DNA of 64,000 nucleotides, from assembly GCF_000026545.1 (NCBI RefSeq), contig NC_011601.1; one strand, given 5' to 3'. The position numbers were made by a program, and so were the translations under genes. The notes under the pieces are model-generated. The model had not been told where the DNA came from. It saw nothing but the letters and a program-made list of their open reading frames with translations, and ran no database searches. Positions 43,620 through 44,944 of the stretch are shown piece after piece; the first letter of the stretch is position 1; the number at the start of each line of letters is the position of its first letter. Source of the DNA: Escherichia coli O127:H6 str. E2348/69. Lineage in GTDB: Bacteria > Pseudomonadota > Gammaproteobacteria > Enterobacterales > Enterobacteriaceae.

Positions 43620-44944
43620 ATGGAAAACGCTAAAATGAATTCGCTCATCGCCCAGTATCCGTTGGTAGAGGATCTGGTTGCTCTTAAAGAAACCACCTGG
43701 TTTAATCCTGGCACGACCTCATTGGCAGAAGGTTTACCTTATGTTGGCCTGACCGAACAGGATGTTCAGGACGCCCATGCGCGCCTGTCTCGTTTTGCGC
43801 CGTATCTGGCAAAAGCATTTCCTGAAACGGCTGCCGCGGGGGGGATTATTGAATCAGAACTGGTTGCTATTCCTGCTATGCAAAAACGGCTGGAAAAGGA
43901 ATATCAACAACCGATCAGCGGGCAACTGTTACTGAAAAAAGATAGCCATTTGCCTATTTCCGGCTCCATAAAAGCACGCGGCGGGATTTATGAAGTCCTG
44001 GCACATGCAGAAAAACTGGCTCTGGAAGCGGGGTTGCTGACGCTTGAAGATGACTACAGCAAACTGCTTTCCCCGGAGTTTAAACAGTTCTTTAGCCAAT
44101 ACAGTATTGCTGTGGGATCAACCGGAAATCTGGGGTTATCAATTGGTATTATGAGCGCCCGCATCGGCTTTAAAGTAACGGTGCATATGTCTGCTGATGC
44201 CCGCGCCTGGAAAAAAGCGAAACTGCGCAGTCATGGCGTTACTGTCGTGGAATACGAGCAAGATTATGGTGTTGCCGTCGAGGAAGGACGTAAAGCCGCG
44301 CAGTCTGACCCGAACTGTTTCTTTATTGATGACGAAAATTCCCGCACGTTGTTCCTTGGATATTCCGTCGCAGGCCAGCGTCTTAAGGCGCAATTTGCTC
44401 AGCAAGGTCGCATCGTCGATGCTGATAACCCTCTGTTTGTCTATCTGCCGTGTGGTGTTGGCGGTGGTCCTGGTGGCGTCGCATTCGGACTTAAACTGGC
44501 GTTTGGCGATCATGTTCACTGCTTTTTTGCCGAACCAACACACTCCCCGTGTATGTTATTAGGCGTCCATACCGGATTACACGATCAGATTTCTGTTCAG
44601 GATATTGGCATCGACAACCTTACCGCTGCCGATGGCCTTGCAGTTGGTCGCGCATCGGGCTTTGTCGGGCGGGCAATGGAGCGTCTGCTGGATGGCTTCT
44701 ATACCCTTAGCGATCAAACCATGTATGACATGCTTGGCTGGCGCAGGAAGAAGGCATTCGTCTTGAACCTTCGGCACTGGCGGGTATGGCGGGGCCTCAG
44801 CGCGTGTGCGCATCAGTAAGTTATCAACAGATGCACGGTTTCAGCGCCGAACAACTGCGTAATGCCACTCATCTGGTGTGGGCGACGGGAGGTGGAATGG
44901 TGCCGGAAGAAGAGATGAATCAATATCTGGCAAAAGGCCGTTAA
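43620..44944 (+). pseudogene. dsdA: D-serine dehydratase dsdA with apparent 4-bp deletion frameshift near codon 373
   Basis: ORF track ends at 44819 after aberrant tail; canonical DsdA C-terminus ([23 protein letters not shown]...YLAKGR) is encoded in another frame to stop at 44942-44944; shift at ggctggcgcag (~44736-44746). Confidence 0.55.

Follow-up and report, generated by a model that had tools for sequence, protein, structure and literature searches.

A four-nucleotide repeat contraction has frameshifted dsdA next to the csc sucrose genes in Escherichia coli E2348/69

In enteropathogenic Escherichia coli (EPEC) O127:H6 strain E2348/69, the reading frame of dsdA, the gene for D-serine ammonia-lyase, breaks towards its 3' end. 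The question raised by this locus is whether the break is real or an error in the deposited sequence, and how such a lesion could have arisen and been kept. The matter bears on other work, as E2348/69 is the reference EPEC strain in studies of D-serine sensing and niche restriction, and its dsdA is broken, not merely silent. We analysed a window of 64,000 nt from the chromosome (NC_011601.1, assembly GCF_000026545.1), and positions given below are those of the window unless stated otherwise. That dsdA is frameshifted in this strain is already known from public annotation: PGAP makes the same call on the same gene and the same 1325-nt sequence, without giving site, mechanism or distribution. 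Beyond that annotation, the present analysis locates the exact lesion in a (TGGC)3 tract and points to its recurrence on three alleles. A limited search of the literature on E2348, D-serine and dsdA found no discussion of the frameshift.

The dsdA pseudogene lies at 43620-44944 on the plus strand. It is 1325 nt long, compared with 1329 nt for intact alleles, is 100% identical to the dsdA genes labelled 'frameshifted' in NZ_CP059840.2, NZ_LT827011.1 and NZ_LT903847.1, and is contracted in just one other complete-genome strain. Alignment of K-12 dsdA with the window by blastn gave a single alignment of 1329 columns with 95.5% DNA identity and exactly 4 gap columns. Against the closest intact allele, that of strain A25, the gap falls within TGGCTGGCTGGC, and the E2348/69 allele differs from that of A25 only by the 4 missing bp, with 0 SNPs in 1325 nt. 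The absence of SNPs indicates that the contraction is recent and, because the event is recent, the out-of-frame tail is still perfect. Alignments with A25, USDA5905 and E2348/69 variety 2 placed the deletion at 44735-44742 (plus strand), where (TGGC)2 stands in place of the (TGGC)3 of intact alleles. Positions 44730-44742 read atgcttggctggc, followed by gcagg, and the in-frame codons across the site are gac atg ctt ggc tgg cgc agg aag aag. Set against about 5,370 other genomes, the 4-nt difference is discrete and not a chance pattern.

The residual open reading frame (43620-44819, plus strand) has 399 codons and a stop. Residues 1-374 are authentic, including the PLP-binding K118, and agree with K-12 DsdA (442 aa) through W374 except for 3 polymorphisms; residues 375-399 all differ, and the stop follows. 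The aberrant tail of 25 codons and the premature TAA (44817-44819) span 44742-44819 on the same strand. When the sequence was read from 44732, one base back, translation ended in YLAKGR*, the authentic C-terminus. The out-of-frame (-1) remnant, 44738-44944 on the plus strand, thus codes for authentic L375-R442 and the original TAA at 44942-44944, with 0 substitutions relative to intact A25. Homology is colinear on both sides of the frame break, as in a frameshift pseudogene. An earlier note on this DNA, made from the sequence alone, had called a 4-bp deletion truncating dsdA, 25 aberrant residues with a stop ending at 44819, and an authentic C-terminus in the other frame up to 44942-44944, and all of this was borne out by the K-12 and A25 alignments and the translations. 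Two of its details needed adjustment. It took DsdA to be intact to about residue 372; the intact part is confirmed, but the last authentic residue is W374. It also described the lost unit as GCTG; a 4-nt unit has indeed gone, but as one unit of a three-unit tandem repeat it may equally be written GCTG, CTGG, GGCT or TGGC.

The same note had left two explanations standing: either dsdA is a pseudogene, or a short repeat was misread in sequencing or assembly. Short repeats are prone to miscalls, and under the second explanation the strain would truly have (TGGC)3 and the deposited sequence would have lost a unit. However, an identical 1325-nt dsdA was found in CP059840.2 (Taunton stock), in LT827011.1 (E2348/69 'variety 2', from Sanger via Imperial College) and in LT903847.1 (engineered from variety 2). 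PGAP lists dsdA as a 'frameshifted' pseudogene in each of the three (H4J01_RS07605 in NZ_CP059840.2, BQ9544_RS14060 and BQ9550_RS11490), and positions 35620-52944 of the window match 17.3 kb of CP059840.2 with zero mismatches. The exact 399-aa product was encoded on at least 24 contigs from different runs in NCBI, ENA and Logan assemblies, most of which may come from repeated sequencing of one laboratory strain. Ten contigs were compared with the window: all carried the deletion, with 100% identity to the window over the overlap, except that two chimeric contigs each had a 1-nt indel outside dsdA. The fact that the identical deletion is present in three separately deposited assemblies and in at least 10 contigs from NCBI, ENA and Logan, short-read data included, excludes an artefact for practical purposes. 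Moreover, loss of 4 nt outside a homopolymer is not a typical platform error, and we regard the error explanation as extremely improbable. Each E2348/69 record has a single dsdA place, so the strain has no intact copy elsewhere. Thus, with the lesion reproduced in independent sequence data, dsdA of E2348/69 is a real, strain-fixed frameshift pseudogene.

Two of the ENA contigs, L010 (ERZ761545) and L014 (ERZ761555), fuse the dsdA region of E2348/69 with sequence unrelated to it (1-2637 of L010 and 4481-5068 of L014). Each was considered as a csc-less context for the allele and set aside. The foreign part of L010 consists of other E2348/69 chromosome segments (e.g. yfaV/yfaU), so that contig is a chimeric assembly; L014 breaks at the same place as L010, window position 47232 in emrK, and is probably the same artefact.

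To survey other genomes we used a 50-nt probe across the site, which gives 100% identity with carriers and 92.6% with intact genomes. The contraction was present in 4 of 5,370 complete-genome records with a full-length probe match, namely three E2348/69 assemblies and the O55:H7 strain USDA5905. Two more records fell in the band of at least 99% identity and matched only part of the probe. About 5,366 of the 5,370 records have three units, and no (TGGC)4 allele was seen among the complete genomes searched.

The effect on the protein was assessed from family models and structural comparison. The truncated product matched NCBIfam TIGR02035 (/ NF002823) with 710.7 bits, above the cut-off of 368.25, but only over profile positions 1-368 of 431, ending at residue 376, whereas intact K-12 DsdA covers 1-431. 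It therefore does not reach full-length coverage of the DsdA model (about 431 positions, for a 442-aa protein). Similarly, the Pfam PALP match ends at residue 372, compared with 398 in the intact protein. The PLP-binding lysine K118 (SGSIKARGG) is kept; the C-terminal EPS (E384-P385-S386) lies past the frameshift and is absent from the translated frame. The 68 missing residues (375-442) are almost invariant between the E. coli and Salmonella DsdA structures, and DsdA is a fold-type II PLP enzyme (structure 3SS7). Residues 374-398 of DsdA align with the O-acetylserine sulfhydrylase motif LAKKEGLLVGISSGAN, the segment that holds GISSGA. In fold-type II PLP enzymes, a serine of this motif hydrogen-bonds the ring nitrogen of the cofactor (IlvA Ser315 in EPSGA, CysK Ser272), and we take the EPS of DsdA to be the counterpart of the serine that contacts the PLP ring nitrogen. 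Because a conserved segment with the EPS motif is missing, DsdA activity has very likely been lost through truncation.

Could the 399-aa protein, alone or together with a separate C-terminal piece, still act as a deaminase or in some other way? K118 and the glycine-rich phosphate loop are kept, and an ATG-initiated open reading frame of 52 aa (44786-44944) runs in the authentic frame. That frame, however, would begin past the EPS motif, at M391, which the normal gene reads as an internal methionine; the lost stretch 375-442, with its EPS motif, is nearly identical in E. coli and Salmonella. Retained activity is on these grounds highly improbable. A second way in which function could persist is recoding, with a programmed -1 ribosomal frameshift near the site restoring full-length DsdA. 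The required direction is indeed -1, and the authentic C-terminal frame stays open without decay across 44732-44944, but the undecayed tail is explained by recency, given 0 SNPs relative to A25. No X_XXY_YYZ slippery heptamer was found in frame from 44700 to the stop at 44819. About 5,366 orthologues lack the frameshift, which hence is not a conserved feature; orthologues are read in a single frame, and neither the heptamer nor the conservation of a programmed frameshift is present. Recoding can be given almost no credence, and loss of activity is the reading that we carry forward.

Comparison of the contracted alleles bears on the origin of the lesion. The USDA5905 allele (NZ_CP039837.1; L003, 4931-6255), in which PGAP likewise calls dsdA 'frameshifted', lacks the same 4 bp but is otherwise the O157:H7 allele, with 0 SNPs; from the E2348/69 allele it is separated by 54 SNPs. 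The USDA5905-type 399-aa product was encoded on 16 contigs from several runs. The contraction was also present on two further haplotype backgrounds, in short-read data assembled from at least four runs (L017-L020). One of the 16 contigs, L017, which represents 8 assemblies, differs from USDA5905 at 118 of 7,200 positions and is set apart from strain SC418's intact allele, which encodes 443 aa, by the same 4-bp loss and 5 substitutions. The nearest complete relatives (the O157:H7 strains, SC418 and PapM-32-1) have intact dsdA. Allele comparison thus indicates that the contraction arose at least three times, on A25-like, O157:H7-like and SC418-like backgrounds. A direct scan of intact dsdA gave (TGGC)3, at nt 1116-1127, as the longest tandem repeat other than homopolymers. 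At 12 nt the tract scores below threshold in Tandem Repeats Finder, which, when run at its minimum score, reported nothing in the gene. Since the loss is recurrent, the nearest relatives are intact and the repeat is the longest of its kind in the gene, the tract appears to be a small slippage hotspot. Slipped-strand mispairing would be the natural explanation for the recurrent loss of one unit.

The downstream substitutions of L017 (P394S, R to H and stop to Ser) were considered as decay of the tail and rejected: all are shared by intact SC418, so they are allele polymorphisms. In SC418 (L023, NZ_LR778147.1, 3001-4332) the stop TAA has become TCA and is followed by TAA, giving 443 aa with an extra C-terminal Ser. 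As some natural alleles have the stop changed in this way, the extreme C-terminus of DsdA tolerates extension. The 90%-identity cluster that includes the truncated products has 506 members, among them many DsdA entries of 272-415 aa, mostly 'partial' at contig ends. Among them, P0004, a 373-aa product found on 32 contigs, may represent a further truncated allele that recurs.

The surroundings of dsdA in E2348/69 differ from a complete dsdCXA locus. The csc sucrose genes (38270-43154) stand where dsdC and the 5' part of dsdX were: by the annotation of the identical NZ_CP059840.2 stretch, cscB is at 38270-39517 (minus strand), cscK at 39579-40502 (minus), cscA at 40718-42151 (plus) and cscR at 42159-43154 (minus). 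All that is left of dsdX is its last 218 of 1338 nt (43385-43602, plus strand), as determined by blastn with K-12 dsdX and annotated by PGAP as 'incomplete; missing N-terminus'; this remnant keeps the region upstream of dsdA. No dsdC homology was detected by blastn anywhere in the 64-kb window. On the 3' side, dsdA is followed by convergent emrYK and then evgAS; emrY (45052-46590, minus strand) forms the conserved right border of the locus. A promoter and terminator consensus scan of 43150-45100 returned sites no more often than in shuffled sequence. The loss of dsdC and dsdX, asserted in the earlier note, was thus confirmed. The note had also tied the dsdA lesion to that loss; as context the tie is right, and as cause it would hold through relaxed selection.

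The layout csc-dsdX'-dsdA-emrYK was present in about 2,659 of 5,426 complete genomes (about 49%), and every carrier of the contraction has csc genes replacing dsdC and most of dsdX. The earlier note had counted an in-frame site in other csc-positive strains, together with resequencing that restores the unit, against a true lesion. The approximately 2,659 complete genomes with the csc layout are in frame at the site in all but 4 records, but they do not refute the lesion, since resequencing does not restore the unit in E2348/69.

The left 60% of the window, approximately 1-37800, is a lambdoid prophage by the annotation of the identical CP059840.2 stretch. It carries genes for CI/Cro/CII, the N and Q antiterminators, a Nin-region, a Rad52-family recombinase, anti-RecBCD, lysis functions and terminase to baseplate, with tRNA-Asn and tRNA-Thr downstream of the Q antiterminator gene and also a gene for an HNH endonuclease. 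As its torI/xis end adjoins the csc genes, the prophage lies within the variable argW-dsdCXA region. A short DUF4942-domain open reading frame at approximately 38038-38190 (L001, 2419-2571) separates the end of the prophage from cscB. Its length is 153 nt here and 207 nt in strain A25, and it appears to be left over from an older argW island.

Enterohaemorrhagic E. coli (EHEC) with the same csc layout has an intact dsdA that is silent without DsdC, and D-serine is toxic to it (PMC7486766). This state of the gene is pertinent to whether the TGGC tract could be a reversible on/off switch for DsdA, in the manner of the tetranucleotide contingency loci of Haemophilus and Neisseria. Independent loss of the same unit at least three times would suit such a switch. 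The tract, however, has only three units and lacks the length and the several length alleles of a contingency locus: about 5,366 of 5,370 records have three units, 4 have two and none has four. All E2348/69-derived data sets compared have two units and none is mixed. Switching would also be without phenotype, because the gene is silent without dsdC (PMC7486766). Phase variation is therefore a very unlikely account of the tract.

The account that we favour, and hold with high confidence as a whole, is loss of a TGGC unit by slippage in an orphaned dsdA, with an inactive product and fixation in a useless gene. The csc genes had already displaced the dsdC activator and most of the dsdX transporter gene, and in strains of that layout dsdA is transcriptionally silent, with D-serine neither used nor detoxified. 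In the E2348/69 lineage one TGGC unit was then lost from the three-unit repeat, most likely by strand slippage at replication. Past W374 the reading is out of frame: 25 wrong residues follow, then a stop 43 codons early, so that the final 68 residues go unmade and the protein is very probably inactive. The mutation was presumably fixed because the gene was already useless, that is, under relaxed selection.

Slippage is also compatible with pathoadaptive fixation of the lesion, in which inactivation of dsdA was advantageous in attaching-effacing csc-positive lineages. All three origins of the contraction are in csc-positive genomes, two of them in LEE-positive pathotypes (EPEC O127:H6 and O55:H7), and there is a strong negative correlation between carrying LEE and carrying dsdCXA (PMC4366372). 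Three csc-positive origins out of three are expected by chance about 1 in 8 times, since about 49% of complete genomes are csc-positive. Nearly all csc-positive genomes, O157:H7 included, nevertheless keep dsdA intact, and a silent gene gives selection little to act on. Selected loss is accordingly unlikely in our view. The more specific proposal that (TGGC)3 is a recurrent target by which csc-positive attaching-effacing lineages permanently shed a silent but reactivatable deaminase through selection is doubtful, and slightly less likely still; the three identical contractions are equally well explained by a mutational hotspot in an unselected gene.

With fixation in an unselected gene as the preferred account, the locus can be set beside known systems. 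The tetranucleotide loci of Haemophilus and Neisseria have in common with dsdA that loss of a whole unit shifts the frame, and in dsdA the identical event recurs independently. The dsdA tract differs from them in having three units, no expansions, no mixed populations and a silent gene, and so resembles a hotspot, not a switch. Recurrence of the same 4-nt loss on three alleles would then illustrate, on a small scale, how a slippage hotspot acts on a gene that is not under selection.

In host-restricted E. coli and Shigella, gene decay follows the loss of pathway partners. The likeness is that dsdA is a catabolic gene without its regulator and transporter that has taken an inactivating lesion. 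The difference is one of degree: decay of dsdA is minimal and recent, consisting of a single 4-nt lesion without substitutions relative to the intact sister allele.

The closest comparison is with EHEC. EPEC strains of phylogroup B2 all lack dsdCX, and wild-type EPEC grew on D-serine only with plasmid-borne dsdA (Connolly et al., PMC4366372, Fig. 2a legend, where the strain name appears as 'EC234/69' and is taken here to mean E2348/69). This failure to grow fits a dead dsdA but is no proof of it, because EHEC with an intact gene behaves alike. Replacement of dsdCX by csc at argW-dsdCXA in EHEC O157:H7 is attributed to Jahreis 2002 and Moritz & Welch 2006, as cited in PMC4366372. EHEC O157:H7 EDL933/TUV93-0 has the same architecture as E2348/69 (cscBKAR, a 3' dsdX remnant, dsdA and convergent emrYK) and likewise does not utilise D-serine. 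Its dsdA, however, is intact, silent and reactivatable (O'Boyle 2020, PMC7486766), and was reactivated by upstream deletions that fused it to other promoters, whereas E2348/69 has its lesion within the coding sequence. Capture of a promoter would therefore have to be accompanied by restoration of the repeat unit, and in E2348/69, unlike in EHEC, promoter capture alone should not regain D-serine catabolism.
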